From assembly GCA_025611195.1 (NCBI GenBank), contig GCA_025611195.1_4718.1: a stretch of 64,000 nucleotides of DNA, one strand, 5' to 3'. The notes under the pieces are model-generated. The model was not told the origin of the DNA. It did not search any database and worked only from the letters and a program-made list of their open reading frames with translations. The DNA is from a phage. The position numbers were made by a program, and so were the translations under genes. Of the stretch, positions 17,752 to 35,245 are shown in pieces; the first letter of the stretch is position 1; every line of letters begins with the position of its first letter.

Positions 17752-18042
17752 TTAACTCCCTCTGTGGCATGAAAACAGAGCGTCTAATTGCTCCCGTTGT
17801 TCTTTTAAGTATGCGGGAAGCTGGTCTTCCCGTACCGTTCCGATTTCCAACGTGATGTACCAGCGTTGTTCGGAAGCCTGCCATTGAAAACTGCTCTGTA
17901 ACCTCAGGATGTTGGGATCGTGTACCATGCTTGCGCTGTAACGGTTGAACCAATTCAGGTATTCTGCTTTCCCTTCCTCGTCGGCAACGTAACGCTGCAC
18001 GCTGTTCTTCCCTTTGTTCTCGTATCCTGTTGCACGTATCAT
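17752..18042 (-). CDS. small hypothetical protein
   Basis: ORF 17752..18096 trimmed to ATG 18042 (AGGAG upstream, ATGA overlap with upstream stop); an alternative frame 17747..18091 is also open. Confidence 0.4.
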   Translation of the reverse strand: MIRATGYENKGKNSVQRYVADEEGKAEYLNWFNRYSASMVHDPNILRLQSSFQWQASEQRWYITLEIGTVREDQLPAYLKEQREQLDALFSCHRGS

Positions 18043-18821: not shown

Positions 18822-18911
18822 CTAAAAAAGATCCTCTGTTTTTCACGTTAATTAAACAACGTATTGATTTCTATTTAACGCAATACGAACATTGTACGTA
18901 TGCATCATGAA

Positions 18912-18929
18912 GGTAATATAGTCGTGAAA
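18912..18929 (-). promoter_or_regulatory. conserved TATATTAC-containing motif (candidate phage promoter)
   Basis: Plus-strand GGTAATATAGTCGTGAAA; about 90 nt upstream of the first gene of the small-gene cluster (ATG 18821). Confidence 0.45.
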
Positions 18930-19031
18930 GGATTTGCATTAAAGCAAGGGTTTTGTTTTAAGAAGGGATGGATTTAGAAGAGGTGTTTCAAGGAAGGTAA
19001 ACGAGGATAGGTATTTTGATTTAAGTAAGAT

Positions 19032-19396
19032 GTTATCTGTATTTGTTAAAAGTGTATTGTCTATGTTATCTTGTTTATCTTAGGTTATGTCTTATTGTTT
19101 AATCGTTTTATCTTTGTAGGTTAAATTGTTCTAGTTATCTTGTTGTATAAAGTAATTCAATAAGCTTATCTTCAAAATGATAAATAACTTGTGTTTATTG
19201 TACATGCTAATCAAAAAACCATTTGTGATACTCTTCTTCACGTTGTTCATCAGAGTATCTCGTCTATACTCATTGCATTCGTATACGACATAACCGTTAT
19301 ACGCTAACGCTACGCTTATAGCTTGATAACTCTAAGGATAAAAACATAAACTCGCTTCGCTCGTTTAGTTTTTCTTTTTCTTAGAGTTATCTTGTT
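19032..19396. repeat. iteron-like direct repeats (GTTATCTTGTT) in AT-rich non-coding region
   Basis: Exact 11-mer at 19065..19075, 19134..19144 and 19386..19396, plus at least four degenerate TTATCTT copies at 19032..19180. Confidence 0.5.
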
Positions 19397-19557
19397 GCTC
19401 GTCTCTAAAGGACTTCGCTCCTCCCCCGTCCCCCGAAGGGGCCGAGGTCGTGGAAATTTTACTTTCCAAATACATTTACAACATCTGTAAACTTTTACTC
19501 CAGGTACTTAATCTTATCATTAGAAATTATAAAGAGAAGAATAAACACAAACATAAA

Positions 19558-19589
19558 CCTTCCTCCAACCCAACAGGGAAGGAGGAAGG
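19558..19589 (-). terminator. conserved two-tier GC hairpin (family copy)
   Basis: CCTTCCTCC/GGAGGAAGG stem, loop AACCCAACAGGGAA; directly after stop of 19603..20496. Confidence 0.45.
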
Positions 19590-19602
19590 GGATTAATTAA
19601 AA

Positions 19603-20496
19603 TTATTCGGAAACGTTGTAACCGAATACCGCTTTACCGTAGGTGTGAGTACCGTCAGCTAATGACAGCACCAACACGTGGTTGTACGTAGCGTTAACGC
19701 CTTTATCGGTGGAATCGGTGGTAGCACCGTTATAGACGAAAGTAGCCGTTTGCAGATTGGCTTTCAGCTCGGTGATGATCTCGTCGCCCACACCCGTCTG
19801 CTCTTTGATCAGCGTGGTCAGGTTACCTGCCAGGCTTTCATCGATCTTGGTTTCGTTACTGGTAATCGCCTGTAAACCTGCGGTGTAGGTACTGAAGTCT
19901 AACGGATAGGTTAACAGACGCGCTGAGGTCTTGGTGCCATCGCCTTCATCAACGTAGGTTAAGTTACCCAGGTTGGTAACCTTGATGATGTTGGACAGAT
20001 CCAGCGTGGTGTTATAAACCTTAACTTGAACAGAACCGTACCAAGCCAGCGAATCTTCTTTGGCTTTCAGGGTGATCGTCTGGATACCATGATCGTCGAA
20101 GGTAACCGGCGTAGCTAACGTATCGGCTTTGATGTCTTTCGCTTTATCCAGGAACTTCTCACCGGAAGGTGTGATCATACCGTAGCGTTGAGCTACAAGG
20201 TCAACCACATCACCGATGGTGGTGTTTTTATTAACGTTAACGCGTACGGCGATCTTCTGGAACCACTTAGCCAGATCCAGACGATGATAGGTAACATCGC
20301 GGTCATTGAAGTAAGGAGTACCTTCACCAGGGCTAAGCGTTAAAGTTGCATCTGGAGCAGAATCGCTTTTGGATTTAAGAACGTATTTAAGGTCGGTGGG
20401 TTTGAAGTTGGCACCCGTATCGGCGTTGAGTGTGTTAATCTCATCAACGATAAGTTGCCAAGGTGTTTTTAAAGTAAGTGATACTTGAGCTGTCAT
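19603..20496 (-). CDS. putative virion structural protein (YxRxDL / LAW[TY]GSV paralog family)
   Basis: Motifs YHRLDLAKWF and SLAWYGSVQVKVY shared with 20643, 31567, 33389 and 34251 genes; fairly host-adapted codons; GAGGAAG SD. Confidence 0.55.
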   Translation of the reverse strand: MTAQVSLTLKTPWQLIVDEINTLNADTGANFKPTDLKYVLKSKSDSAPDATLTLSPGEGTPYFNDRDVTYHRLDLAKWFQKIAVRVNVNKNTTIGDVVDLVAQRYGMITPSGEKFLDKAKDIKADTLATPVTFDDHGIQTITLKAKEDSLAWYGSVQVKVYNTTLDLSNIIKVTNLGNLTYVDEGDGTKTSARLLTYPLDFSTYTAGLQAITSNETKIDESLAGNLTTLIKEQTGVGDEIITELKANLQTATFVYNGATTDSTDKGVNATYNHVLVLSLADGTHTYGKAVFGYNVSE

Positions 20497-20533
20497 TTTC
20501 TTCCTCGATGGTTGTTACATTACTCTCAAAAGA

Positions 20534-20547
20534 TGTAAACGTTTACA
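20534..20547. promoter_or_regulatory. perfect 14-bp palindrome TGTAAACGTTTACA
   Basis: Centred in the 146-bp divergent region between two codon-optimised structural genes (19603..20496 and 20643..21185), flanked by TATATA runs. Confidence 0.35.
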
Positions 20548-20642
20548 GAAATTAATATATCTTTATATATAAAATGTAAATACTATGGAGAACGACTCCG
20601 ACTCTCCTTTTCGACCATCAAAAAATCAGAGGATACATAATC

Positions 20643-21185
20643 ATGGCCTTAGACTTTAACAAAGCAGCCAAATCCCTTCTGCTTGATCTTATCAACACCA
20701 AAGCAACCCGCCCACTGACTGAAGAAGAACTGCAGTTCGGTACTCCGGGAGCATCTTCCGAACATGAAAAGAACACCGTTATCCAGCTGGATGCTGCAGC
20801 TGAAGCAGCTAACCTGCAGGGTACTCAGCAGTTCTACTACGATCGTCTGGCTCTGTCCGAAGTTTTCGCTGATGTAACCAGCGATGTTACTTTCGAACTG
20901 CCGCACGGCACTGACAGCATTAAGGCTTCCGAGCTGGTAAGCAAGCTGGTCACCAAATTCGGTCTGGCTTCCCTGACCGGTGAAATCAATGAAGAAACCT
21001 TCCAGCTGTCTGCTGGCACTGTTGGTGAAGTAACCCTGACTGCGATCGAGGGTGGTCTGGTATATACCGGCACCCTGCAGGTTGCACTGACCTACGCACC
21101 AGCACCGAAAGACGAACTGGCAACCGTTCTGGCGAATAACGTAGCTGAAGGTTTCGTGAAACCTGAAGTTGCTGTCGTTGGCTAA
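20643..21185 (+). CDS. abundant small structural protein (short member of the same paralog family)
   Basis: Strongly biased codon usage (CTG, GGT, ACC, GAA) like the capsid gene; motifs FYYDRLALSEVF and GGLVYTGTLQVALTY; GAGGA SD; double stop codon. Confidence 0.6.
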   Translation: MALDFNKAAKSLLLDLINTKATRPLTEEELQFGTPGASSEHEKNTVIQLDAAAEAANLQGTQQFYYDRLALSEVFADVTSDVTFELPHGTDSIKASELVSKLVTKFGLASLTGEINEETFQLSAGTVGEVTLTAIEGGLVYTGTLQVALTYAPAPKDELATVLANNVAEGFVKPEVAVVG

Positions 21186-21384
21186 TAAGCACGTAGAGCA
21201 ATAGTATGGGTTTTGTACAGCTCGGCTATTGCTCTTCTACAATTTGGTTGTAACAATCTGCGTGGTTGCACGCTTATCTTTCTCAATGAGCGCTTCATAC
21301 GAAGCGTGGTGTTGAAAGGGTTGTGGATCTCCTCAAGCGGCCAGGGACCCAGACCAACCTGAATAAACACAAACACATGTTAAG

Positions 21385-21416
21385 CCCCTCCTCATCCGTT
21401 ATTGGGTGGGGAGGGG
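21385..21416. terminator. GC hairpin with U-rich tail
   Basis: 13-bp stem CCCCTCCTCATCC/GGGTGGGGAGGGG (two G-U pairs), loop GTTATT, then TCTTATACGTCTTTAT; between convergent genes. Confidence 0.45.
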
Positions 21417-21479
21417 TCTTATACGTCTTTATGCGTTCCGTTCGTTCTGGAGCGTTTTAGGACGGTTTATGATGGTGTT

Positions 21480-22115
21480 TTACTCAACACTGAACCCGTT
21501 CAAGATGATCGCTTCATAACGCTTACGTTCACGACGTTTGCGTGCCTGCCAACCGTAGATGAATTTCTCATCTTTCTCGCGTCGCTCTGCTAACTCGATG
21601 TAATAAGTGCTCTGCATATCCAGCATCGCATCGATGAGATAATCCTTACCGGTTGCACCACGCTTAGCGATGTATGCGTCGAGCGCGCTTAACGTCGCAG
21701 GTCCCATCAAACCGTCGGCGTTGATATTTTTCCAGTAAGTTTGGCGGTTGTTCATGACGTTCAGATAACGCTGGAGGTTCTTAACCGGAACGGTTTTGCC
21801 TGCGTTGATACCCAGGTCAAAGAGACGATCAGCCAAGAACACGGAACGTTTCATGACCTCATCAAGCTTCATCTTATCCCAGAAGTGGGTCTTGTAGATA
21901 AAGAACGCCATTTCCGTGGTAAGGTTACGCATGTTACCGTCCCAGCCGAATTTCGTTTTCAGCGTGGTTTTGTATTGATCGGCGAGTGTTTTCGTAATGC
22001 CGTGGTTCGTGATTCCGCCCGAATCATCGGGATCGTCGACGTAACCTGCTTCGATGCTAGTTTTGTCACGAATTATGAATTCGCAAGTAAAATCTTTTTC
22101 AGTAATCTTAGCCAT
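21480..22115 (-). CDS. endolysin (GH108-type lysozyme with C-terminal peptidoglycan-binding domain)
   Basis: N-terminal EAGYVDDPDDSGGITNHGIT matches the GH108 catalytic motif; GAGGAG SD 5 nt before ATG. Confidence 0.75.
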   Translation of the reverse strand: MAKITEKDFTCEFIIRDKTSIEAGYVDDPDDSGGITNHGITKTLADQYKTTLKTKFGWDGNMRNLTTEMAFFIYKTHFWDKMKLDEVMKRSVFLADRLFDLGINAGKTVPVKNLQRYLNVMNNRQTYWKNINADGLMGPATLSALDAYIAKRGATGKDYLIDAMLDMQSTYYIELAERREKDEKFIYGWQARKRRERKRYEAIILNGFSVE

Positions 22116-22241
22116 TAGAACTCCTCATTTAAATAACGATTTAGAGGAACAGGAAGGGTCTAGAACGCGATAAACGATTTAACCCAGGCAAACCCTAGAT
22201 TAAACTTTTCGAAGCGTTACAACGCGTTCTAGAACGCTGAA

Positions 22242-24290
22242 TTAAATACCCTTGGTTCCTTTCACGTGATGTGCAATTTCTTCAACCATTGCACGCAGGG
22301 CACGAAGTTGTTGGTCGTGTTCATACCAACCGCCTAACAGAACCCCGCTATACACCATGGTGTCAAGACTTAACAGCCCTTTATCTGATACGTTGATCAT
22401 TTCCGGGAACTGTTCTTGAACACGCTGTGCGATAACACCGATCTTCTCGACATCAGGATCGTAGTTGTGACGGAAACGAGCGAGTCCGCTATGTGCCATC
22501 TCACGTAAACGATCACTGAAAGATTCCGGATGGTCTTTCAGATAACGGATGTCATGTTTACTGCGTTCATCAGAACGGATGTATGCGTTAGGAACATCGA
22601 TGTTGCTGTTGAAGTACAGCGCACTACCGCCACCGGCAGAGTTCCCCCAATAGAAGCTGGTTAAGATGCTACCCCCGTTACCTGTAACGTGCACCGTGCT
22701 GCCTACACGGGTTCCCCCACTACCATCAACGAAGACAAGCTTGTTCCCGCTGTAAGAACCCCAGAACAAACGGCTGTCGATGATGTTTGTTGCAGCGAGG
22801 CGAGCGTTACGTGGTGTAGAATACACGGTGTTAACATCTTGCTGTGCTTGCGCATCGGAAGCGATACCGTAGTTCTGAACATTCCCTAAGCCTACCTGGG
22901 CTTTGTTAACGGCGTGAGGGTTATCCCGACGGTTAGCGTGAGCATTAACCAGATCGCCCGCCAGTTTTTGAATAGCCCAGTTGGTAGATTGTGGCGTCAT
23001 ATAGCGGTTAGTTGCAGAACCACCTTGCGCTTCAGCTTGGTTAGCAGTTGGATAGTTCTCAACGCTTCCCAACCCTACCTGTGCTTTAGACACTTGGTGC
23101 GGGTTGTTCTTGTCGGCGATGTGCGCATTAAGCGGAACTAACGCGAAGGTCTCAATGGACGCTTTGGTGGTGTTCGGTGCCATTAATCGGTTAGCTGCAA
23201 CACCCGCACGCGCTTCTTCTTCAGAAGCCATCGGATAGTCTTGCACATTCCCTAACCCAACCTGCGCCTTGGTTACTCTGTGTGGGTTGTTGTAATCGGC
23301 TTTATGCGCATTAAGTGGAATCAATGCGAACTGTTCAATCGCTGCAACGGTACGTAGCGGTGTCATGAAACGGTTGTTCGCTGTTCCGGCTTTCGCCTCA
23401 TCATCCGAAGCGGTCGGGAAGTTATCAACGTTCCCAAGGTTAACCTGTGCTTTGGTGACGCTATGTGGGTTATCTCGACGGTTAGCATGCGCGTCGACTA
23501 GATCGCCCGCCAGTTTAGCAATCGCCCATCCAACCGTCTGTGCTGTCATGTATCGGTCAGGTGCGGTACCGGCTTCTGCCTCCGCCTTGTTTGCGGTAGG
23601 ATAGTTCTGTACGTTACCTAGTCCGACTTGGGCTTTTGTTACTTCATGCGGGTTATCGGTACGGTTAGCGTGCGCGTAATGCAGATCGGTCAGATCTTTA
23701 TCCGCTGCTTGCATGTCTTTGCGTAACTGATCGATTGCCGCCCAGAGACGGTTATCGGACGCAGCATCACCGATGAGTATTGCGGCTTTTAGCGAATAGA
23801 TCGCTAAGCAAAGATGTTCGGTACCGTAGATAGCACTAACGTGGTGGATGTGTGGTTCAGGCGGATAAAGTTCCGGTTTGTTCTTGATGTCGTCCCAGTT
23901 GATCGGACGATCGTCAAGTTTGAGTTCTTCGATAGCCTGATACAACGCATCAATAAGACTTACGTAAACACCACCGATGATACGATAGTCGTTAACTAAT
24001 GTACCCTCGATGTCATCGTTGATGATGGCGATGGCCGCACAGATTTCTTTACCAGCGTAAAGCGTAGCGTCCTGATACAAGAAAATGGGTTTGTAATCCA
24101 CGCCGCGTACCAGTGTCTTACCGGTAAGCTTTTCGGTGATAACCAGACTTTCGGTGAAGAACGGTCCGCCATCGAGGGCGTAACATTTATTCTCGGTTCG
24201 TGGAACGGTGTGCTCTTCACCAACGATGTGGTTGCTATCGAGCGTGCCGGTCCAGTCCTCGGGGTACTTCAGGGTAATTGGTGTTGACAT
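22242..24290 (-). CDS. tail fibre protein with C-terminal intramolecular chaperone (S74-like) domain
   Basis: Five NPHxVTKAQVGLGNVxNY repeats; C-terminal ~110 aa beginning SDERSKHDI resembles the self-cleaving chaperone domain of fibres/endosialidases. Confidence 0.8.
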   Translation of the reverse strand: MSTPITLKYPEDWTGTLDSNHIVGEEHTVPRTENKCYALDGGPFFTESLVITEKLTGKTLVRGVDYKPIFLYQDATLYAGKEICAAIAIINDDIEGTLVNDYRIIGGVYVSLIDALYQAIEELKLDDRPINWDDIKNKPELYPPEPHIHHVSAIYGTEHLCLAIYSLKAAILIGDAASDNRLWAAIDQLRKDMQAADKDLTDLHYAHANRTDNPHEVTKAQVGLGNVQNYPTANKAEAEAGTAPDRYMTAQTVGWAIAKLAGDLVDAHANRRDNPHSVTKAQVNLGNVDNFPTASDDEAKAGTANNRFMTPLRTVAAIEQFALIPLNAHKADYNNPHRVTKAQVGLGNVQDYPMASEEEARAGVAANRLMAPNTTKASIETFALVPLNAHIADKNNPHQVSKAQVGLGSVENYPTANQAEAQGGSATNRYMTPQSTNWAIQKLAGDLVNAHANRRDNPHAVNKAQVGLGNVQNYGIASDAQAQQDVNTVYSTPRNARLAATNIIDSRLFWGSYSGNKLVFVDGSGGTRVGSTVHVTGNGGSILTSFYWGNSAGGGSALYFNSNIDVPNAYIRSDERSKHDIRYLKDHPESFSDRLREMAHSGLARFRHNYDPDVEKIGVIAQRVQEQFPEMINVSDKGLLSLDTMVYSGVLLGGWYEHDQQLRALRAMVEEIAHHVKGTKGI

Positions 24291-24303
24291 AACCTGGAGG
24301 TCC

Positions 24304-26907
24304 TTATAACGTGACTGTACCTAATTTGGTTGTCTTATTGAGATTGATGACAGAAATCTGGGTATCGCTGGTCGTAATCGTCCCGATGTTAACGCGCTGC
24401 CCTTTATCATCTTCTTGCTTGTGGATGGTTAACTCCAATTCTAACTGGTCGCCATTAGGAACAACGGAAACGTACCATGTTTTATTACCTGGTGAGCTAT
24501 TATAGTCTTTTAGGTTATAATGGCCTTTAGGTAGGGTCATGACTTTACCAGCAAACAAGCAAGTGATGTCTTCGTTGATGTAGATATCGTAACCGGAAGC
24601 AGCAACGACCGTAGAAACCATGTAACGGTTTTTAACAGCGAGAGCTTTATATTCCGCAACGGAATTGCCGACAACACTAAAGACTTGACCGCCATTACCC
24701 ATCACCGTAGAGACTGCGGCATCAACATAACCGATTCCCCACACCGGATGTACGTTCCAACGATAGCCGCTTGACTGTAGGTAAGCATACAAACCTTCAA
24801 ATGCGATGGTTGTCCAGTTCCCATCGTTTTGTCGTCCAGCTCGGAACTGATAGGTGTTCTGGTTCCCTGCAGACTGACGTAAATACGGAACATGTCCAGC
24901 AACAAGCCACCCATCACTCACCTTCTTGTAAGCTAATACACCCCAGGCGGCATTCTGACTGTAGATATTTGTTGAATCGGGGTCTTCGACATAACCCAGC
25001 AGTTTGGTTACGCCCGTCACCGTAATAGCGCCTTTACGTGCGGATACGGTAACCTCCGCAGCGATTCGTCCATGTACGCGTGTGCTGGTATTACAGCCAG
25101 CAACAAACAGAATACACGGTGCGTTTGTACCATCTGGAGGTACGGCTAACGCATGCTGCCACCGACTGACGCCAGACACCTTGTTTCCGGTATATGCGTT
25201 CCACACGAGCTGTCCGCCTGCTTGCAGGTTGGCTGCGGTTATGCTGATGGCTTCACCGGAAGGTGCGAGTTTGGTGGCGTCGTATCCGATTTTACCGGAT
25301 AAGTTTGAATCAGTTAAATAAGACCCGCTAACTACCGTATTGTCATCGCTTAAATGTACGGTTAGGAAAGGTCGCGACATTTGACCTGCGCTAACCACCA
25401 CGTTGTTGGAAGGCGGAAAACCGTAAACGTCAATACCTTCTCCCTGATAACGGTAATCGAGATTCCAGTCATAGGTCACTAGACGAGCCTCAAAATTACC
25501 CTGTCCACCACCCGTACGTGAGTTAACGAAAACCTTGTTTTTAGAAAAGAAACCCAGGTAACCATGGGACGCGAGTGCACCTACGATGCGATCCCCGACG
25601 TTTTTCCAGTATGAGTCGTACTGTATTCCACCAGTAGGACCGAGTTTGGCGAGTTCGTCGAACACATTTCCAGAGAAACCGTTGATGGTGTACGATCGCG
25701 CTTGGGGGGCGGATAAATTGTCGTTTTGGATAATGGCTACCTGACCGCGTTCGTTGATTTCGATATTCCCGGTACCGTTACCCGAACGCCATTGCCAGAA
25801 ACCATCGTTATACTCACTTGTTCCATCGGTTGTAGTAGATGGTCCTACCCAGTCTATCCCGCTATCTGTTGACACGTATGTGGATTGTCCAGCGCCCGGG
25901 TTCATGCTGTAACTGTTGTTGGCGGTTTCAAAATCGAGATAGAACTGATGTAGCCCGTTCTTTTGCTGGTTTTTGCGGTTGTTCGTCCACCATGCCGAAG
26001 CAATCAGAATACGTGCTTTAGTACCTTTGGTTGCTGCGAGCATACGAATCTGAGCACGCCAGACGGTTTGACCGATCCCATCAGAAGGGAAATCGTTAGT
26101 AGTTATGCGGTTGCAGACAATCATCTCGGCACTGTTGCTTATCGCCGTTCCTTCTATCGTTCTACCGCTAATATTCGTAAGCTGTGTAGCCGCTACGCTG
26201 CCACCGCTGGGACCGATGGAAGATTTGGTTACGGTATAAACATTTAAGTAGAGTTTATAACTGTTAGTGCCAGCGATAGCGATGTAGATTTTACCGTTAA
26301 TTTCCCAACAGCAGATATGCGGTGATGTATCAACAAAGTTGGCAAGACTACCATCAAGATACATGGCGACATGTTTGGATGCGTCAAACGTTCCGTCTGT
26401 CAACGCGATAAACATTTTAGGGCTGCTACCGTCTTCAAAAGCAGCTTGACCTAACATGATACCGTTCTGGTGACAGTATATCACCGTAGGAATACGATCG
26501 AGCGTTGCGGGCTCATAGCGGCGGCTGGTTGGAATAACTTCAGTGATCTGTCCGTTTTGATTTGTTTTACAGATAACGTAGTAAACCCCTTTCTTTACGC
26601 TGTTCGTTGCCGAACGCAGTAACACGATGGTACCATCGGATTCACGGCATACGCCGTAACGACGGTATTTGTCGTTTAGACAGATAGCACCATCAGCGGA
26701 GCCTTCGATTGCCAGAGGAAAATAACTTTGATCCCCAACCTGTTCGATATCGGTTACGCCGATATCGATGTATTTTTCCATCTCGGTGTCGAACTCAGCG
26801 GTACTATAGGCACCGAGATCGCTCGCCTTTAGTCCCGTTGGGTTGTCGCGACTGGCGATACGTGTATTAACGCTACTCACCAGTTCACTGAACTTTTTCA
26901 TTGCCAT
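24304..26907 (-). CDS. large tail/receptor-binding protein
   Basis: 867-aa G/S/T/N-rich ORF between the fibre genes; N-terminus carries RDNPTGLKASDLG, a single fibre-repeat-like motif. Confidence 0.55.
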   Translation of the reverse strand: MAMKKFSELVSSVNTRIASRDNPTGLKASDLGAYSTAEFDTEMEKYIDIGVTDIEQVGDQSYFPLAIEGSADGAICLNDKYRRYGVCRESDGTIVLLRSATNSVKKGVYYVICKTNQNGQITEVIPTSRRYEPATLDRIPTVIYCHQNGIMLGQAAFEDGSSPKMFIALTDGTFDASKHVAMYLDGSLANFVDTSPHICCWEINGKIYIAIAGTNSYKLYLNVYTVTKSSIGPSGGSVAATQLTNISGRTIEGTAISNSAEMIVCNRITTNDFPSDGIGQTVWRAQIRMLAATKGTKARILIASAWWTNNRKNQQKNGLHQFYLDFETANNSYSMNPGAGQSTYVSTDSGIDWVGPSTTTDGTSEYNDGFWQWRSGNGTGNIEINERGQVAIIQNDNLSAPQARSYTINGFSGNVFDELAKLGPTGGIQYDSYWKNVGDRIVGALASHGYLGFFSKNKVFVNSRTGGGQGNFEARLVTYDWNLDYRYQGEGIDVYGFPPSNNVVVSAGQMSRPFLTVHLSDDNTVVSGSYLTDSNLSGKIGYDATKLAPSGEAISITAANLQAGGQLVWNAYTGNKVSGVSRWQHALAVPPDGTNAPCILFVAGCNTSTRVHGRIAAEVTVSARKGAITVTGVTKLLGYVEDPDSTNIYSQNAAWGVLAYKKVSDGWLVAGHVPYLRQSAGNQNTYQFRAGRQNDGNWTTIAFEGLYAYLQSSGYRWNVHPVWGIGYVDAAVSTVMGNGGQVFSVVGNSVAEYKALAVKNRYMVSTVVAASGYDIYINEDITCLFAGKVMTLPKGHYNLKDYNSSPGNKTWYVSVVPNGDQLELELTIHKQEDDKGQRVNIGTITTSDTQISVINLNKTTKLGTVTL

Positions 26908-26919
26908 TATTCACCTCGA

Positions 26920-27405
26920 TTAAATAGGCGAGTCGGGAAGCTGACCATCATCGATCTCGATGGCGGCCACCTTACGTGTCGCAGCAAGATGTGATGTACC
27001 CTGGACTTTGTTCCAGGTACCGATACGCATGGTGTTTTTGTAGCTGCTATCGCTATCGTTCAGCGTGTAAACAAAACCGCTATCGGTTACGGCAAGATAG
27101 ATCCAGCCTACAGACTCACTGATACCCGACACGTCCAAAGTTGTTGCTGGCACCGTCCCTACCACCGTGTTGTATTCCGCTGTACCTTGGCCAATGCTGA
27201 TCCGCCCGTTGCTGTAACTGGCTGCCGGAAGCGTTTTATTTCGACTGAAGAAAAGAAACGGAAGGTAACGCTGGGTAACAAGCGGTGCAAGTTTAGGAGC
27301 CACTTCGGTCTTAGTGTAGACATCTGTTTGTTCTGGCGTTACCTCGTGAGGGTTCTTTTGGGTAAGATACGTTCCCCATTCAGAAAGCAGTGTTGATAGC
27401 TTCAT
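26920..27405 (-). CDS. small tail-fibre-associated protein
   Basis: N-terminal KNPHEVTPEQTDV resembles one fibre repeat; lies in the fibre module. Confidence 0.5.
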   Translation of the reverse strand: MKLSTLLSEWGTYLTQKNPHEVTPEQTDVYTKTEVAPKLAPLVTQRYLPFLFFSRNKTLPAASYSNGRISIGQGTAEYNTVVGTVPATTLDVSGISESVGWIYLAVTDSGFVYTLNDSDSSYKNTMRIGTWNKVQGTSHLAATRKVAAIEIDDGQLPDSPI

Positions 27406-27409
27406 GCGG

Positions 27410-27919
27410 TTACCCCATGTAACGTTTTTGGCCGAGGATGAAGACTTTGTTAAATACCACCGAAGTGATTCCTGATGCGTTACAGCTTACCTGCCCGACG
27501 CGAATTGCTGTTGACGTATCGACCCCAGCACTACTCTGCCAGCTCCAATCAATCGATCCGTCTTTCTGATGAATGAAAAGATAACCGGTTTTGTTCGCCC
27601 AGTCGGAAGTAAGATTTTTGATGTCTAACGTTCCTTTCGCCAGAATATAGTCGGTACCGGCGATCATGACGGGGATTTCAGGATACGAGATTACCGTACC
27701 GCTAGCGGTAACGTTGCTGATGCGATCACTACGGATATCGGTACAATCACCGAAATACGCTACGGGGAGTATCCCCTTAGGTAGCTTTTTGTCGATTCTC
27801 GTATCGATCGTGCTTTTATCGGGTGCGTCGATTTGCGCTGCAGTGACTTGGTTAGGGTTATCCTTCCTTGCATACCACGTCGTCATGCGAGCACCCAACT
27901 CACTCATTTTTGTGCCCAT
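27410..27919 (-). CDS. small tail-fibre-associated protein
   Basis: ORF 27410..27925 (GTG) trimmed to ATG 27919 with AGGA upstream; N-terminal RKDNPNQVTAAQIDA motif. Confidence 0.5.
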   Translation of the reverse strand: MGTKMSELGARMTTWYARKDNPNQVTAAQIDAPDKSTIDTRIDKKLPKGILPVAYFGDCTDIRSDRISNVTASGTVISYPEIPVMIAGTDYILAKGTLDIKNLTSDWANKTGYLFIHQKDGSIDWSWQSSAGVDTSTAIRVGQVSCNASGITSVVFNKVFILGQKRYMG

Positions 27920-27976
27920 TTTCACGTCCTATCGAAAAATAAAAAGAAGGAAAGGTGGGTAGAACCCACCCATCCA

Positions 27977-30130
27977 TTATAACGTTTCGAAGTCTTTTGC
28001 CTTGATGACCGCGTTGAAGTTGGCAAGGAATTCCTTAAGTAATGCTTGGAAAACATCGCGGAACGCCGCGTTCGTCTTCAAGCTGGTTAAATAATCGTTC
28101 TTAAGGTAATCACTAAGCTTACCGATCTTCTGCATTGTCACGCCTTCATCGTTCTCTCCGGGTTCCTGGCTATTGATATTAGCCCACTTGATCCCTTCGA
28201 GATCGCCATCAGCAAGGAAGTTAGCTGGCGTCTCATCATCGTTAAGGATTTTGATCGTGTCGCTGGATTCAATACCACCGTAAGCTTCCAGAAGCTGGTT
28301 GACGGTCAACTTATTGACGTTGATTGAACCATTAGCACCATCGATACCGAGTCCGGTACCCGTGATAGACGTTGCTGAAAGATCGATTGGTCCGGTTAAC
28401 TTACCCCCATTGATAGGGAGCGCACCGACTTGTTCGGCTGTGTGCGTGTGATCTGCTAACGCCGCGAACGCTGCAATCGACTTGTAAGTCGAGTACGGTG
28501 TCATGTACGCCGTCTGGTTAGTCCTGTCAGCAGCTTGCACATCGGTGGCGACAGCAAAGTCCTGTACGTTCCCTAACCCCACTTGTACCTTGGTTACTTC
28601 ATGCGGGTTACTCTTATCGACAACGTGTGCTGCAAAACCATCACCTGCTAAAGCGATGATCGCTGCTTTTGTCGCAGCCGGTGTCATATAGCGGTTGGTC
28701 GCTACACCTGTTTGCGCTTCCACATCAGAAGCAACAGGGTAGTTCTCAACACTCCCCAACCCAACCTGGGTTTTCGTTACCCTGTGCGGGTTCTCGGTAT
28801 TTGCGATGTGGCTACTGAACCCTTGACCAGCCATTTGCTCGATCGCGTAACGAACAAGTATTGGTGTCATGTACTTGTTGTTAGCCTGACCGTCGATCGC
28901 TTCTTGGGTAGTAGCAACCCCAAAGTTCTGCACACTTCCCAGACCGACTTGGGCTTTTGTCACCCCATGCGGGTTATTGGTGTTACCGATATGTTCGGTT
29001 ACGGTTGGGGTGATTAACGCTGCGATAGCGGCGGCTGTGGTCGCAGGCGTCATGTATTTGTTGTTAGCAACACCCGCACCAGCTTCCCCATTAGACGCTA
29101 CACCATAGTTCTGTACGTCCCCCAGCCCTACCTGTGCTTTCGTAACAGCATGAGGGTTGTTATTATCCTCGGTATGGGTTGTTAACGTAGCGTTGACATG
29201 ATCGATGCGTGTACTTAAGCCGTCCGTGATTGCCTTGATTGCTGCTCGTACACCCGCTGGAGTCGTGTACAGATTAGTGGCTGTACCGGTAACGGTTGTA
29301 TTATCATCGGCTACACCGTAGTTCTCAACGTCTCCGAGTCCCACCTGGGCTTTGGTCACCTTGTGTGGGTTGTTGCGGTTACTGATGTGTGCGGCGGCAC
29401 TATCACCACTAAGGTTAGCGATCATCTTGCGCGTCATCGCCAACGTCATGTACAGATTTTCACCGACAGTTTCCAGATCGCTCTCAGTCGCTGTTGTGAA
29501 ATTCTGCACATTCCCTAAGCCCACCTGGGCTTTCGTAACGCCGTGGGGATTATCGCGTCGATTCTCATGCTGTACTAACGCAGTCATTGCTTTATTGAAC
29601 CCTTCTTCAAGCGGTTCTTTCAATGACTCGATTGCAGCCACCACATCGTCCCACGTCATTGTGTCGGTTTCGACATTATGTTGGTGGTTGATTGGTGGGA
29701 ATACAGAAGGAACGTCGGCAACCTTTTCCCAGAACGTAACACGAGGATCGTAAAGGTTGTTGGCTAAAACGTTAAGAATTTGTTGTTGATCAAGTGTAAA
29801 CTCACCCCCCAGTGAATAGTAGTTCAGTTGCAACTGTCCACTGAATGCGGTGTCCAACAGCATGATGGAACCGTATAATTCCAGGCCGGTCAGCGCAGCC
29901 ATGGCACGGAAGGGGTGAGTGCATAAAAAGTCAACGCCTTCTTCCAGATACGCGTTTGTTTCAGGGTTGTAGATCTTTAACCCATTACGAAAATAGGGTG
30001 CGTATTTAGGAACGAGAAAGTTAAATCCGGTCCCCGTGGAAGGACGGACAGTGACGAGTTCTTCTGGAACCCATGCGCCATCCAAATTCCCCTGCGGGTT
30101 ATACGGAAGGCGTTTAATTTCATCTGTCAT
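27977..30130 (-). CDS. tail fibre protein
   Basis: Six NPHxVTKAQVGLG(N/S/D)V(Q/E)N(F/Y) repeats; N-terminal region similar to that of the 22242..24290 fibre; no chaperone domain. Confidence 0.8.
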   Translation of the reverse strand: MTDEIKRLPYNPQGNLDGAWVPEELVTVRPSTGTGFNFLVPKYAPYFRNGLKIYNPETNAYLEEGVDFLCTHPFRAMAALTGLELYGSIMLLDTAFSGQLQLNYYSLGGEFTLDQQQILNVLANNLYDPRVTFWEKVADVPSVFPPINHQHNVETDTMTWDDVVAAIESLKEPLEEGFNKAMTALVQHENRRDNPHGVTKAQVGLGNVQNFTTATESDLETVGENLYMTLAMTRKMIANLSGDSAAAHISNRNNPHKVTKAQVGLGDVENYGVADDNTTVTGTATNLYTTPAGVRAAIKAITDGLSTRIDHVNATLTTHTEDNNNPHAVTKAQVGLGDVQNYGVASNGEAGAGVANNKYMTPATTAAAIAALITPTVTEHIGNTNNPHGVTKAQVGLGSVQNFGVATTQEAIDGQANNKYMTPILVRYAIEQMAGQGFSSHIANTENPHRVTKTQVGLGSVENYPVASDVEAQTGVATNRYMTPAATKAAIIALAGDGFAAHVVDKSNPHEVTKVQVGLGNVQDFAVATDVQAADRTNQTAYMTPYSTYKSIAAFAALADHTHTAEQVGALPINGGKLTGPIDLSATSITGTGLGIDGANGSINVNKLTVNQLLEAYGGIESSDTIKILNDDETPANFLADGDLEGIKWANINSQEPGENDEGVTMQKIGKLSDYLKNDYLTSLKTNAAFRDVFQALLKEFLANFNAVIKAKDFETL

Positions 30131-30162
30131 GATGCGCCCTTTACAAGTTGTTAGTAAGTGTG

Positions 30163-30180
30163 GGATACCCTGGGGTATCC
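30163..30180. promoter_or_regulatory. 18-bp palindrome GGATACCCTGGGGTATCC
   Basis: Between divergent starts of the fibre gene (30130) and 30235..31515; AATATTACTGTAAC lies 20 nt downstream. Confidence 0.3.
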
Positions 30181-30234
30181 TGTGTTAACAGCGGTAAAAT
30201 ATTACTGTAACTATAAAATAAGGGGGCCTCTCCC

Positions 30235-31515
30235 ATGTATACATTGGTAAAAACTTACGGATTACCCGTAGGTTCCGGCACGGCCTGGACAGCACTTGAG
30301 GCGGGTGAAAGTGTCCTGAGTACGTTGTTCTCAGCGTATCAAAAACTCAAGATCCAGGTTCATGAAAGCTATGCTGACCAGCAACAAGTTATTGATCTGT
30401 ACACATTTCAATCCGAGCTTCAAAACAGCAATGACACGCTCAATGCGTGGTTGAAAGCGAAATCGGATGCGCACACCAACCTTCGAGGACAGCCTGGTGA
30501 GCTGTCGATTAAAACCCACAAGCTTTATTGTCACGACGTTATTACCGTAGGCTTTCTCCCTAAAGTCGGTAATAGCGGTTATCATCCGAGCAACGCGATC
30601 CCTGAGTCGGAACGTACCGATATCCTGTTGACGAAAGCGGATACGAATTACGAAAATATCGGCAAACATTGCTTGTTCACCGTAGGCGGTTATGTTCATC
30701 CTCATGTTTACGGTAAAGACGTCGGTGTCTATATCCAGGGTGGGTTCGAGACAGCACAGCGTAGCCAAGAAAACGATATCGGCATGATTGATTTTAGTCG
30801 TATCGGGAGTTTGGAAATCCACGCTATCACAGAAGAGATGCTTGCTGATTCCACGAAGCTCTTGCCGTATAAGGACGAGATGTACTTACGGCTACCACGC
30901 AAGGTCGCCGAAGATGAAACCGTCGCGCTTGTGTTCGGGGGATATCTACACCTTCTTGACGATTGTTACACGATCGTTAGTGACACGACGGCAAAAATAA
31001 ACTGCAGAAACATGTTTCTGTATGAAAGATACTTCCGCTCCCGCAAATACCTTGATTTAACGTCTCTTGGTATTCTGTTGAACGAAGAAGACCCGCAGTC
31101 CGATATTGTTGCCAATCGTTTACTGTCTGATAAGACTTTAAAAGCATGGGTGACACACCCCTGCAGTTTCTGGGTGTATATCAAAGCAACATCGATTCAG
31201 GTTACACAAGAACCTTTACCACGAAGTGGTGTACCAGGACAATATTTCTTAGGTAAGAAACCGGAAGGACTGATTCGAGCTGACCTCGGTGAGTTACCGG
31301 CTTACGTGCAGACCTATGAAAAACCGTTATGGGTACTTCACTCACGCTGGGGACTTCGTAAGAACATGTTGTTTGAAAACACGTTGTACAAACATACACG
31401 CGTTAAGCGGCTTAACGATACACCTTATCTTCACCAGGTCTGGTTGGAAACGCACGCGACGTTGCAGACAGTACATAAGCTCGAATTGATCGATTCCAGT
31501 CAGAAAAACAAATAA
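30235..31515 (+). CDS. hypothetical protein in tail module
   Basis: 426-aa ORF, ATG with AAGGGGG upstream; only + gene within the tail module. Confidence 0.5.
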   Translation: MYTLVKTYGLPVGSGTAWTALEAGESVLSTLFSAYQKLKIQVHESYADQQQVIDLYTFQSELQNSNDTLNAWLKAKSDAHTNLRGQPGELSIKTHKLYCHDVITVGFLPKVGNSGYHPSNAIPESERTDILLTKADTNYENIGKHCLFTVGGYVHPHVYGKDVGVYIQGGFETAQRSQENDIGMIDFSRIGSLEIHAITEEMLADSTKLLPYKDEMYLRLPRKVAEDETVALVFGGYLHLLDDCYTIVSDTTAKINCRNMFLYERYFRSRKYLDLTSLGILLNEEDPQSDIVANRLLSDKTLKAWVTHPCSFWVYIKATSIQVTQEPLPRSGVPGQYFLGKKPEGLIRADLGELPAYVQTYEKPLWVLHSRWGLRKNMLFENTLYKHTRVKRLNDTPYLHQVWLETHATLQTVHKLELIDSSQKNK

Positions 31516-31525
31516 ACAAACATAA

Positions 31526-31557
31526 CCCTCCTCCAACCCATCAGGGAAGGAGGAGGG
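31526..31557. terminator. conserved two-tier GC hairpin (family copy)
   Basis: CCCTCCTCC/GGAGGAGGG stem, loop AACCCATCAGGGAA; between convergent genes. Confidence 0.45.
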
Positions 31558-31566
31558 AATATGTTG

Positions 31567-32472
31567 TTATGCCACGTATAACGTTAGATAACCGTCGATG
31601 AGCGTATTCATCACACTGAGTTGAAGTACAACAGCTTTACGAGCGTCTGTACGTACACCAAATGGTAGTGTTTTGAAATGCTCTGGATCGGCTATTACTT
31701 TCGCATTCTGCAAGTTGAGCGGTCCAGGTATTGACGACAATACCCAACGATCGTTGGCCGTAAGACCGTCGATCTCTTCAGAGAGACCCAATTGCAGTGC
31801 GTTCATTTCTGCGATTAATGCCTCCGATTGTGTATCACCTGAGGTTAACGTATACCCATCAGTAAGTGACGTTAGAACATCATCAGACATGAACCAGTTG
31901 TACGAAACAATAGCGCCTGGGAGTTTATCACTATCTCGATCGATGAGATAATTCAACCCAGCCAACATATTGTTGCGAATGAGGTTGTTGAGGTCGTTAT
32001 GTCCTGAAGTTAACTCAACAAGTAATTGACCAACCCATACTTGGTTACCAGGTTTAGGTGTTATCGCAACATGTATCGGTGATTTGGATTTATCCAGATC
32101 CGCGTCGACAATCTCGGTTTTATTGAGAAGGATACCGTACGTTGATGCTAAGACAGGTAATATCTCAGAGACCTTGGTCAGCGCGTCTAAGGTTTCGATC
32201 TCGATGGGCCAGCGGTGCTGGCCACCAGACCAAATACCCAGTTTACCAAGATCAACGCGGTTATAATAGATGTCGACAGAGTTCACCAGCCCTGAACCTG
32301 GTTGGGGATGCACAGTTAACTTGCTGTTACGCTTGTACCCTGTGCTTTCAGAAGCCTCACCGATAACCAGTTTATCCAGCGTTACGCCTCGAGCATCGAA
32401 ATCGCTATGCTTTCGAATCAGCCGAAAGAGGATTTCTTTCGATTCTAACCCTAGGATTTCACTGTACTCCAT
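31567..32472 (-). CDS. putative structural protein (paralog family)
   Basis: Motifs YYNRVDLGKL, NQVWVGQLLVELT and ANDRWVL...LNLQNAKV shared with 33389 and 34251 genes. Confidence 0.55.
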   Translation of the reverse strand: MEYSEILGLESKEILFRLIRKHSDFDARGVTLDKLVIGEASESTGYKRNSKLTVHPQPGSGLVNSVDIYYNRVDLGKLGIWSGGQHRWPIEIETLDALTKVSEILPVLASTYGILLNKTEIVDADLDKSKSPIHVAITPKPGNQVWVGQLLVELTSGHNDLNNLIRNNMLAGLNYLIDRDSDKLPGAIVSYNWFMSDDVLTSLTDGYTLTSGDTQSEALIAEMNALQLGLSEEIDGLTANDRWVLSSIPGPLNLQNAKVIADPEHFKTLPFGVRTDARKAVVLQLSVMNTLIDGYLTLYVA

Positions 32473-32487
32473 TTAACACCCCTTAGG

Positions 32488-33372
32488 TTACGGTAGGATT
32501 TCTGCGCCTGTCGGGCCTGCCTTACGAGCTTCCAACGCACCAAGGTCGTATTTCAACGTCAGCGTATCGTTGGTGGTAAATAGGTTGTGGTAAGTCGAAA
32601 TCAGATCGGTAACCTGTGCGCCTACGATTTCGTTCATGTCGAAGGTAGAACCTTGACCATCTTCAGCACGAACGATTTTGTCACCAGCAGAGACCATCCC
32701 AATTTCAGAAATAACCGCGTACTCTTCACCACCTTCGGTGAGTTTAGCCACATTGAGATATTCGTTAATATCCCATGGTGTCCAGACCAAAGAGACCTTA
32801 CAGCTATAATCGTAGTACTCTCCGGTCGCCACCAGAATTCCTGTTGTTGGAATATCCGGTCGGGGCGGGTTGAGGTTCTTGTCGGTTGGATGCCATTCGA
32901 TGGTCTGAGCAACACCATCGATGTACTTGGTATACCGCATGGAGCGGACAACGTTATCGAAATCGATACGACGACCGTAATAACAGATGTACTTTTTACC
33001 GTTTTCCAGCGTCTCAATACGACGTAACCCAAATTTAGCGCGTTCGTCTGTGGTCAAATCGTTACCAACTTCACGCATCACGAAAGGTTTGATTTTCCAT
33101 GGTGAAAGATCGCTTGCTTCGTGAGCGATCGGCATCGAGGAAGGGATGCCGTTAGCGTTGCGGATGAATTCGTGACCTTGGTTGCCGATACAGAAGTAAC
33201 GTACAGCAGGATTACCCTCGGGGTAAATCTTTGATTGAATCTGAAGCTTTTCGTTCAAGGTGCTGTGTTCTTCCCACGCATGAGGAAGACCGAGCGTAAG
33301 GTTCGTTTGTACTTGACCGCCGATAATCGTACGGACGATACGATCGGTAGCACGGATTTGTGTAGAAGCCAT
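32488..33372 (-). CDS. putative structural protein
   Basis: 294-aa ORF embedded between paralog-family genes; no recognised motif. Confidence 0.5.
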   Translation of the reverse strand: MASTQIRATDRIVRTIIGGQVQTNLTLGLPHAWEEHSTLNEKLQIQSKIYPEGNPAVRYFCIGNQGHEFIRNANGIPSSMPIAHEASDLSPWKIKPFVMREVGNDLTTDERAKFGLRRIETLENGKKYICYYGRRIDFDNVVRSMRYTKYIDGVAQTIEWHPTDKNLNPPRPDIPTTGILVATGEYYDYSCKVSLVWTPWDINEYLNVAKLTEGGEEYAVISEIGMVSAGDKIVRAEDGQGSTFDMNEIVGAQVTDLISTYHNLFTTNDTLTLKYDLGALEARKAGPTGAEILP

Positions 33373-33388
33373 GTCTTTTCCTATTTAA

Positions 33389-34240
33389 TCAGTTATATTG
33401 CATCAACAGGATACCGCCGTAGTTCGTGCAGTAATCTTGGCTAAGCGTAACGATAACAGCGTTAGCGAACGCAGGGTTAACAGGATAACCCTGTGCGATA
33501 AGTTCTGTTGTTTTACCGGTTGCGAGTACGGTAGCCCCGTAAAGGTTGTTTTCGTCTTCACGGCCGTTATAAACCCATGGGGTTGGTGCAACGTTGTTGA
33601 ATAAGCTGACCATTGCGCTTAGGTTACCACCAACCTTTAACCCGGCAAGATCGGAACGGATTGCCGTGCAGTCTATAGCGTAACTGTAGACCAATGCCTG
33701 GATACGATTTGCGGTGTAGTACGGGAAATTGAGACCGGTCATCACCGAAGTCTTCATCATCCCCGCAATATCGTGGGCACTATCGAGGAGGTAGAATGTA
33801 ACACTTCCCGTCCAAGCCAATCCGGTGTTTTTCAATTCTACGACATGAGGGAATGGGTATTCATCACCTCGTACAATCGGAGAATCGACGCAGCTATCCT
33901 GATCGATAACGATTCCGTACGTCGATTGGATCAGAGGGATAAGATCGTGCGTTGTTTTAACCCCGGCGTCGATAGCAAGCTTCGGTTCCATTCCCAAGAA
34001 GAAGTCTTGGATAGGGATACGATCGTACCACACGTAGCTGCTTTCACGGTATTGTGCTGGCGTTACTGTTGCCGAAGGCGATACCTTAGCGCGGGTGTTC
34101 CGTTTATACGCGTGGTTTCCGTTTTCAGCAGCATCCGTGATCTCAAGCGCATCGAAGTTAAAGTCGAAGTCAGGATTGGCTGCCTGAATAAGTTCGGCGA
34201 CCAGTACTTTAGGACTTTTGTTTAACAATTTCTGACTCAT
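33389..34240 (-). CDS. putative structural protein (paralog family)
   Basis: Motifs WYDRIPIQDFF, GLAWTGSVTFYLL and YCTNYGGILLMQYN. Confidence 0.55.
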   Translation of the reverse strand: MSQKLLNKSPKVLVAELIQAANPDFDFNFDALEITDAAENGNHAYKRNTRAKVSPSATVTPAQYRESSYVWYDRIPIQDFFLGMEPKLAIDAGVKTTHDLIPLIQSTYGIVIDQDSCVDSPIVRGDEYPFPHVVELKNTGLAWTGSVTFYLLDSAHDIAGMMKTSVMTGLNFPYYTANRIQALVYSYAIDCTAIRSDLAGLKVGGNLSAMVSLFNNVAPTPWVYNGREDENNLYGATVLATGKTTELIAQGYPVNPAFANAVIVTLSQDYCTNYGGILLMQYN

Positions 34241-34250
34241 TGTTTATTCC

Positions 34251-35198
34251 TTAGCCTTGTTCTTCTGGAGAACGACCCTGGAGGCTTGCGGTATGTCCGT
34301 CGACGTTGTAATAGAAAATCAATGGACCGCCGACAGCAGTACAGTAGTTTTCATCCAGACTGATCTCGATACCGTATTGGTAACCCGCTCGTGCTGGAAT
34401 ACGTCCGCCTAACTCGCCGTTGAAAGCCACTTTAGCGTTATACAGGTTATACGGTGCGATGTTGTCGTCTAATACCCAACGGTCGGCGGTCATTTCAGCC
34501 AGAAGATCGGCGACCACCACATCGCTAATGACTGTACCTGTTACCAGCGAAGCCAGCTGCTCACCGTAATCGGAAGTATTGCGACTGTAACTGTAGATCT
34601 CACCGCTAGCGCGTACGCCCTGTCCGAAGAACTTAAGACCATCAAGCTCTTTGATTGCGATAATATCATCAAGATTCGGTACACGCGATTTCATCAAGAT
34701 ACGAACACTTCCCGTCCAAGCCAGGCAACTAGATACGACACGGAGCAATTGTCCGTTAACGGTATCCCAGTTAAGTTCGTCGTTGACAATTTCTTCTGCG
34801 GTAAGGCCGAGACCGAAACGTTCTTTGATGATAGGCCAGATATCACGCATCTTGGTGGCATCTGGCGCATCGATAAGAATAGGTGCTACGTTACGTAGAT
34901 ACGCACCGATGTTAATACGATCGTAATACAGCGTCGTCGAACCTTCATAATCGTCTAACTCGGTAAGCTTAGCGGTTGCTGTTGCCGTAATCTGGGTATC
35001 ACGCTCGTAGGCGCTTTGGTTGGTGGTTGGTGTCCCTAAAACCAATAATTCAGGGGTTAGAACATGTTCTCCGTTCTGAGGTGGGTTATCGTGGTTGATA
35101 AGACCATACACGAGATCGGATGAGGGTAAAGAGACGTCGACCGGGTAAAGTTCGGTGTCGTCAATAGTTGTTACCGTATCACTCACGGTGACCTCCAC
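34251..35198 (-). CDS. putative structural protein (paralog family)
   Basis: Motifs YYDRINIGAYL, CLAWTGSVRILMK and YCTAVGGPLIFYYN; start is GTG at 35198, or GTG at 35186 which has GGAGG upstream. Confidence 0.5.
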   Translation of the reverse strand: MEVTVSDTVTTIDDTELYPVDVSLPSSDLVYGLINHDNPPQNGEHVLTPELLVLGTPTTNQSAYERDTQITATATAKLTELDDYEGSTTLYYDRINIGAYLRNVAPILIDAPDATKMRDIWPIIKERFGLGLTAEEIVNDELNWDTVNGQLLRVVSSCLAWTGSVRILMKSRVPNLDDIIAIKELDGLKFFGQGVRASGEIYSYSRNTSDYGEQLASLVTGTVISDVVVADLLAEMTADRWVLDDNIAPYNLYNAKVAFNGELGGRIPARAGYQYGIEISLDENYCTAVGGPLIFYYNVDGHTASLQGRSPEEQG

Positions 35199-35245
35199 GC
35201 CAGGAATTAATTAAAAAAGACTTTACGATTTGCTGCACTATCACG

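Follow-up and report, generated by a model that had tools for sequence, protein, structure and literature searches.

Five DUF7941 genes in a Goslar-like jumbo phage

Five open reading frames (ORFs) were analysed in a 64,000-nucleotide stretch of phage DNA (GenBank assembly GCA_025611195.1, contig GCA_025611195.1_4718.1; hereafter, the window): gene A (19603..20496, minus strand), gene B (20643..21185, plus strand), gene C (31567..32472, minus strand), gene D (33389..34240, minus strand), and gene E (34251..35198, minus strand). A preliminary description of the sequence had presented them as a paralogous family of five structural genes, and all five are present at these coordinates. When positions 19000-36000 were compared with a phage collection, the only matching record was Escherichia phage vB_EcoM_Goslar (92.6% nucleotide identity), a nucleus-forming jumbo phage of E. 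coli from the Chimalliviridae. Judged by position and identity, genes A to E are orthologs of Goslar gp22, gp23, gp31, gp33, and gp34 (90.9, 86.7, 93.7, 96.5, and 98.7% amino acid identity, respectively), and their order and orientation are those of the Goslar genes. For gene E, two starts are possible, 35198 and the 35186 that corresponds to the Goslar annotation.

The products of all five genes matched the Pfam family PF25613 (DUF7941), with E-values from 6e-21 to 2e-62 (8.7e-52 for A, 3.2e-54 for C, 7.8e-47 for D, and 2e-62 for E). Their scores, which were 75.6 bits for B, 160.5 for D, 176.7 for A, 184.7 for C, and 211.6 for E, are all above the Pfam gathering threshold of 27 bits. PHROG 1037/2935 ("virion structural protein") was likewise matched by all five. 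Pairwise BLASTP comparisons revealed 20-27% identity, with E-values of 1e-5 to 1e-19 for most pairs; the exceptions were A-B (E 0.47) and B-D (E 0.053), which are joined only via other members. The proposed family is thus borne out by PF25613, by PHROG, and by significant alignments of most pairs, with A-B and B-D weak. A profile built from the five revealed no sixth member among the other ORFs of the window, and none of the five matched PF12699 at E <= 0.1.

Profile search and structure prediction, which had been suggested as a check, led to a single solved protein. The family profile matched chain 0 of PDB entry 9xqd (PHIKZ127, i.e., phiKZ gp127) over its full length with an E-value of 5e-18, while E and B, used as single sequences, had no match among PDB sequences, so that phiKZ gp127 was found only by the family profile. 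In a Foldseek search with the AlphaFold2 model of gene A, 9xqd_0 was the only match (E 7e-7), and the predicted fold of B matched the same chain. The N-terminal domain fold of phiKZ gp127, the only solved DUF7941 member, is therefore present in the family. The five paralogs are 16-24% identical to gp127. A one-to-one ortholog of gp127 could not be assigned among them, as A, D, and E all match.

The motifs from which the family had initially been recognized are real but were overstated. [YW]Y[DNH]R[ILV], thought to be common to all members, is found in its strict form in four of the five, with TYHRL in gene A. The strict form of [LV]AW[TY]GS[VL] is present in A, D, and E, but B contains LVYTGTL and C contains QVWVGQL. 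The C-terminal YCT..GG.L, ascribed to three members, occurs in two genes only (YCTNYGGIL in D and YCTAVGGPL in E). The absence of two of the three motifs from some members, together with the lack of significant similarity between A and B alone, is what a chance resemblance among unrelated structural genes would produce. However, independent Pfam and PHROG profiles match all five genes, the family profile matches 9xqd, and chain 0 of this entry is also the match of both predicted folds, that of A and that of B. Chance similarity is refuted by these results, and we consider it hardly credible. We conclude that the five genes are real DUF7941 paralogs of nucleus-forming jumbo phages.

Every DUF7941 context that was examined proved to be a jumbo-phage-like structural locus. 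No relative was found when 185,579 bacterial and archaeal species genomes were scanned with E-group patterns, a scan that catches close patterns only, and IMG/VR contained only three close relatives of gene A. The DUF7941 module appears to be confined to phiKZ-like, nucleus-forming jumbo phages. The existence of the family is already known from Pfam (DUF7941), from work on phage SPN3US (2016-17), and from work on phiKZ and Goslar (2026). In Goslar, eight further members (gp31, 33, 34, 86, 91, 92, 93, and 161) have been listed (Basu et al. 2026, 10.64898/2026.04.21.720040); among these, gp86, 91, 92, 93, and 161 have no counterpart among the ORFs of the window.

The DUF7941 module consists of an N-terminal domain (NTD) of ~150 amino acids, a conserved linker of ~20 amino acids and, in most members, a C-terminal domain (CTD) of ~110 amino acids. 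In the AlphaFold2 model of gene A, the NTD spans residues ~10-162 and the CTD, predicted with confidence, residues 186-297; the linker between them (163-185) is of low confidence. Gene B, which codes for 180 amino acids, is a short form: it spans positions 4-173 of the 276 positions of the PF25613 profile, and its predicted structure (predicted local distance difference test score 90.7) contains an NTD and a conserved C-terminal linker tail without a CTD. The layout of an NTD, a flexible linker, and a CTD, with a short form that lacks the latter, was thus seen in the model of A, in the profile coverage of B, and with NTD and CTD profiles of our own. It is the same in Goslar, where the direct orthologs (87-99% amino acid identity) include the same abundant pair of a long and a short protein.

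The linker follows the pattern h-x-L-x-x-h-h-x-x-x-x-L-x-G-[FL]-x-[YF], where h is a hydrophobic residue, and occurs in three settings: it ends gene B (DELATVLANNVAEGFV), it joins the NTD to the CTD in A-E, and it joins successive NTDs in tandem proteins. The latter were encountered in a whole-library profile search, which returned 3025 cluster representatives (carrying no genomic context) at E <= 1e-3. Architectures were scored with our NTD and CTD profiles in the best 150 of the 3025, and comprised 90 NTD-CTD, 24 NTD-NTD, 7 NTD-NTD-NTD, 9 NTD-CTD-CTD, and 16 NTD-only proteins; several of the NTD-only representatives are, at 156-193 amino acids, like B. The repeat period of the tandem forms, ~170 amino acids, equals the length of B, and Pfam independently reports two to three DUF7941 stretches in tandem proteins. 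Members from elsewhere are fused to immunoglobulin (Ig)-like, SPRY, and concanavalin A-like lectin domains (Pfam). Because NTDs are fused in tandem and share the linker motif, the modules are probably arranged head to tail, with the linker as a functional element; this is evidence of the gene-fusion type.

Expression and evolution of the divergent A-B pair

To our preliminary description, the codon usage of gene B had appeared as biased as that of the capsid gene (47219-49441). The two are close but not equal. The effective number of codons of B, 37.0, is the second lowest among 57 genes, the lowest being that of the capsid gene (30.3). In a codon adaptation index (CAI) referenced to the capsid gene, B ranks second of 57 (0.616), A third (0.445), and C 52nd (0.214). 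B favours the preferred codons of the capsid gene (CTG 83%, CAG 100%, TTC 88%).

The high expression that had been predicted for the short member is supported by its Goslar ortholog, gp23, which is estimated at ~2144 copies per virion. Copy numbers determined by others for the orthologs by mass spectrometry are 2144 for gp23, 577 for gp22, 112 for gp33, 27 for gp34, and 8.5 for gp31 (10.64898/2026.04.21.720040, Table S4). The CAI order in the window, B > A > E ≈ D > C, nearly matches this ranking, with only D and E, whose CAI values are near-equal, swapped. By the copy numbers of the orthologs, B and A are the most and the second most abundant of the five, gene B is the bulk protomer, and gene C is a low-copy member. 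Neither codon bias nor tandem arrays are mentioned in the Goslar preprint (10.64898/2026.04.21.720040).

Genes A and B diverge from a 146-bp control region (20497..20642). The perfect 14-bp palindrome that had been noted in this region, TGTAAACGTTTACA at 20534-20547, was confirmed by reading of the sequence and by pattern search. Its TGTAA/TTACA arms are invariant in four phages, while the 4-nt centre varies, and three relatives keep only the 5-bp arms. Since the centre varies in relatives, the perfect 14-mer is peculiar to the window; the Goslar palindrome is not perfect. Further downstream, ATACTATGG at 20580-20588 resembles a late promoter with a TATG start site for B. The late promoter of phiKZ is defined by TATG at the start site (PMC12809450). 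A hairpin, GGAGA..TCTCC at 20587-20607, lies in the 5' untranslated region, where the B mRNA is predicted to begin, and both hairpin and TATGG are invariant in four phages.

Parts of this region recur upstream of the capsid gene. Exact ATACTATRG is confined to the regions upstream of these two genes, B and the capsid gene, and TGTAARYGTTTAC, with one mismatch allowed, occurs at only three intergenic sites, 19486, 20534, and 49526 (this last one upstream of the capsid gene). The TGTAARYGTTTAC-type elements of Goslar gp23 and of the Goslar capsid gene are identical. The capsid gene (49515-49538, minus strand) and B (20534-20588, plus strand) have in common GTAARYGTTTAC, ATACTATRG, and an AGGATAC ribosome-binding context. 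Judging from sequence, these shared elements may constitute a strong late-promoter module of Goslar-like phages, and the palindrome would be part of its upstream element. For gene A, no TATG motif at a start site proved to be conserved on the minus strand. Scanning for σ70-type promoters gave no useful information, which was to be expected because the phage relies on polymerases of its own.

A different putative promoter element, exact CTATATTACC, occurs at 5534-5543, 18912-18921, and 55208-55217, in each case on the minus strand, in an intergenic region, and upstream of minus-strand genes. The sites sit in longer shared contexts such as CGACTATATTACCTAGGTGA. We take CTATATTACC to resemble the core of the phiKZ early (virion RNA polymerase) promoter, TATATTAC. 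If these sites are early promoters, they mark early operons beside late structural genes.

On the other side of gene A, a terminator-like hairpin (19558..19589, minus strand) directly follows the stop codon, and a T-rich stretch of the minus strand comes next. Paired changes in its stem (CCTTCCTCC/GGAGGAAGG to CCTCCTCC/GGAGGAGG) are seen in relatives L003, L016, and L017. The 781-bp ORF-free gap after gene A also contains a block of ~290 nt in which 14 Goslar-like sequences are 95-100% identical; the synonymous-site difference (dS) of neighbouring genes is 0.2-0.9. The minus strand of 19213-19468 (256 nt) folds with a z-score of -5.5, and the plus strand with -4.2. The element contains a C(UUCG)G tetraloop and ends with a terminal hairpin and a T run, and a promoter-like motif, similar to those of B and the capsid gene, lies upstream (up to 19500). 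At one hairpin apex, the combinations AU/UA, AU/CG, GU/CG, and GC/CG occur, with pairing kept in all four, and the G·U apex pairs are valid only on the minus strand. Relatives L004 and L015 lack the element. Rfam and tRNA scans of the window, including the 19213-19468 element, gave no match. The minus strand of 19213-19468 is thus a candidate for a novel structured phage non-coding RNA. The left part of the gap (18900-19210) is less conserved, with indels relative to Goslar, and contains several GTTATCTTGTT-like repeats.

Comparison of 15 genes of the structural block with Goslar revealed that the ratio of nonsynonymous to synonymous substitution rates (dN/dS) was highest for B (0.30), followed by A (0.20); the portal, gp35, gp32, and gp30 were at 0.03-0.05. 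No protein of the block (19603-40591) has diverged further from its Goslar counterpart than the gp23 ortholog. In relatives L003 and L004, B is 51-57% identical, as compared to 98% for gp25, 90.5% for the endolysin, and 78-87% for A. Among B orthologs, conservation is highest in the N-terminal helix (0.89) and in the C-terminal tail (0.81), and is 0.61-0.75 in the middle. These rates, and the divergence in L003 and L004, indicate that the most highly expressed member is hypervariable.

Alongside the endolysin, the divergent long/short pair persists down to 51% identity of A. Genes C, D, and E surround a non-member, the DUF7208 gene (32488..33372, minus strand; PF23838, E 3.6e-96), downstream of which lies C. 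This gene, an ortholog of Goslar gp32 and phiKZ gp139, had no similarity to the five paralogs in BLASTP. Contigs of 62-287 kb whose portal is only 26-28% identical retain the order portal, gp35–E–D–DUF7208–C, and C adjoins DUF7208 in distant jumbo-phage contigs as well. Given this degree of portal divergence, C, D, and E are an ancient baseplate-operon set. The repeated duplication that had been proposed therefore holds in so far as the genes are paralogs that arose by duplication, but C, D, and E around DUF7208 are not recent duplicates.

Several neighbouring genes were also characterized. The portal, the Goslar gp36 ortholog, ends in a long acidic tail rich in Ser, Thr, Asp, and Glu (40400-40591). 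Minus-strand genes at 22242-24290 and 27977-30130, orthologs of Goslar gp25 and gp29, code for large fibre-like proteins with many copies of a repeat of ~45-50 amino acids containing NPH.VTKAQVGLGNVQNY; for gp25, the Goslar annotation includes a Peptidase_S74 conserved domain. A minus-strand gene at 16849-17682 (277 amino acids) has no Goslar ortholog. It is a 29%-identical paralog of the gp21-like gene at 18039-18821, with which its product shares HPLG[YF]A.V..VR[WY]N, and represents an additional copy that has been inserted between the orthologs of gp19 and gp20.

Assembly and location of the DUF7941 proteins

Structural work by others connects DUF7941 with the baseplate. In the phiKZ virion, a band made up of five dimers of gp139 terminates at gp127 (Xiao et al. 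2026, PMC13250141). The latter was modelled in the outer peripheral baseplate (PDB 9xqd chain 0) and is present in one copy per star lobe (PMC13250141). With six lobes, we calculate six copies of gp127 per virion; unlike the abundant members, it is not a high-copy polymer. In Goslar, the DUF7208 protein gp32 forms the baseplate spokes. Because the phiKZ gp139 band ends at gp127, and because gene order from the portal and gp35 through E, D, and DUF7208 to C is conserved, we link genes C, D, and E to the baseplate, and the DUF7208 protein is the likely docking partner of DUF7941 chains.

The Goslar ortholog of gene A has been shown to polymerize: purified gp22 forms filaments several hundred nm long in negative stain, without the virion (10.64898/2026.04.21.720040). 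AlphaFold 3 predicts head-to-tail dimers and oligomers, and the authors proposed a "DUF7941 fibre cloud" of head-to-tail polymers anchored at the peripheral baseplate (10.64898/2026.04.21.720040).

Our preferred reading, to which we assign a probability of about 0.6, is that proteins of the DUF7941 family assemble into head-to-tail polymers through docking of the linker. The linker of one protomer, together with the CTD where present, would dock onto the NTD of the next, giving flexible, mixed filaments. Gene B, an NTD with a linker only, would supply the chain unit that is produced en masse, and a second bulk unit would come from gene A. C, D, and E, which are low in copy number and encoded in the baseplate operon around DUF7208, would likely act as adaptors that tie the chains to the outer baseplate near the DUF7208 spoke. 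The filaments would most likely be external, exposed to selection from outside the virion, and might have a function in host recognition. External exposure is suggested by the top dN/dS values of B and A, by the divergence of B in L003 and L004, and by the Ig-like, SPRY, and lectin fusions found elsewhere. Originally, the family had been interpreted as a duplicated tail or baseplate building block with one copy specialised as an abundant component. The abundance of the short copy stands, but the module would be a self-polymerising chain unit and not a rigid block. A place in the baseplate agrees with phiKZ gp127, but is not established for the abundant copy, given the tailless particles of SPN3US described below.

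By functional analogy only, such a chain would resemble chaperone-usher pili, where, in donor-strand exchange, a short extension of one subunit completes the next, or docks onto it, and gives rise to an open-ended head-to-tail fibre. The combination of a bulk subunit and low-copy adaptors would be another likeness. There is, however, no fold similarity (the type 1 pilus match had a Foldseek probability of 0.04), and no usher or chaperone is evident. The PF12699 "inner body" proteins also form a chimallivirus-specific paralog family with one or two members that are very abundant in the virion, but they belong to another Pfam family, and are packaged and injected.

A distant relative, SPN3US, provides the main evidence for a different location. 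Its "paralog family B" (gp138-154 and others), for which the possibility was raised that no phage genome has a larger paralog family (Thomas 2016, Ali 2017; PMC5105663, PMC5694885), belongs to the same Pfam family. PF25613 matched gp141 (E 1.3e-84), gp143 (8e-83), and gp160 (6.9e-11), and our NTD and CTD profiles matched gp138-145, 148, 151, 154, and 155. As in the window, there is one abundant long member, gp141 (303 amino acids), and one abundant short one, gp160 (175 amino acids). Densitometry of a tailless mutant gave >300 copies of each per capsid (PMC5105663, PMC5694885). Family B proteins were found in CsCl-purified, DNA-filled tailless particles, and were hence assigned to the head; these particles lacked the tail tube, the tape measure, and fibre-like proteins (PMC5105663, PMC5694885). 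This assignment conflicts with the baseplate model. SPN3US differs further in that 17-20 members form one tandem array, as compared to five in two clusters here. The Goslar preprint (10.64898/2026.04.21.720040) makes no mention of SPN3US.

Within the SPN3US array (L027, 115393-135346), gp146, 147, 149, 150, 152, and 153, which the authors placed in family B, matched neither the NTD nor the CTD profile, and gp146 and gp147 had no DUF7941 match in Pfam. From these profile matches, the published family B may combine DUF7941 with a second, interleaved family.

Several observations weigh against baseplate-anchored external polymers. The persistence of SPN3US gp141 and gp160 in tailless particles argues against a tail-dependent anchoring of the bulk units. 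The Goslar cryo-electron microscopy maps contain no DUF7941 density (10.64898/2026.04.21.720040), and the fibre cloud is, for this reason, a proposal. The Goslar virion preparation also held chimallin and PhuZ, so large assemblies do co-purify (10.64898/2026.04.21.720040). Fast evolution would also fit injected proteins. Finally, phiKZ gp127 has no clear one-to-one orthology to any single paralog.

The SPN3US data could mean that A and B are head components, either a coat or fibres on the capsid surface or internal proteins packaged with the DNA, and that no members other than the low-copy ones are part of the baseplate. In PHROG, the family is classed under "head and packaging", and Goslar gp22 and gp23 lie outside the atomic model, as do packaged PF12699 proteins. 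We nevertheless regard a head location as possible but unlikely. No capsid-surface density has been assigned to proteins of the A or B type in the Goslar or phiKZ maps, and it would be costly to carry an additional ~60 MDa of protein within the capsid. Packaged head proteins typically undergo propeptide processing, of which the long, low-identity Pfam matches give no hint, and peptide coverage is 90% for Goslar gp23 and 94% for SPN3US gp141. The lectin and Ig-like fusions, and the glycoside hydrolase and leucine-rich repeat fusions of Goslar, suit an exterior role.

Self-assembly of gp22 without any virion raises another question, namely whether A and B form free intracellular filaments, for instance a matrix holding virions in late "bouquets", that merely co-purify. 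The chimallin and PhuZ assemblies in the same Goslar preparation set a precedent, a co-purifying polymer would be present in complete and tailless particle preparations alike, and no virion density of DUF7941 filaments has been seen. Yet phiKZ gp127 is a bona fide baseplate subunit, the genes of the family are placed in structural operons, and strong late-type expression signals are common to B and the capsid gene. A high dN/dS is, moreover, not obviously expected of an internal scaffold. We therefore consider this explanation rather improbable.

The location and role of DUF7941 proteins are thus contested between the head, based on SPN3US genetics, and a baseplate fibre cloud, based on Goslar and phiKZ structures. 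To what was known, the present analysis adds the agreement between CAI and copy-number rankings, a short member that is the fastest evolving, tandem arrays with the same linker, and an ancient gene order. For the preferred reading of head-to-tail polymers, it offers testable handles: the short form is a hypervariable chain unit expressed at the level of the capsid, natural tandem fusions point to head-to-tail order, and the linker motif, e.g., the L-x-G-F core of DLATVLANNVAEGF, is an obvious target for mutagenesis.

A further possibility, which we hold to be doubtful, is that A and B together make a tail-independent, hypervariable polymer coat or matrix, attached to the capsid or free, and that only C, D, and E are true baseplate parts. 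Were this the case, the SPN3US tailless data would be reconciled with the phiKZ structure, and top expression and fastest evolution would be explained together. Such a coat or matrix might protect against binders from the host or the environment, by decoy or shielding, or might glue the intracellular virion bouquets together. DUF7941 accounts for tens of megadaltons per virion in nucleus-forming jumbo phages, several of which are candidates for phage therapy.

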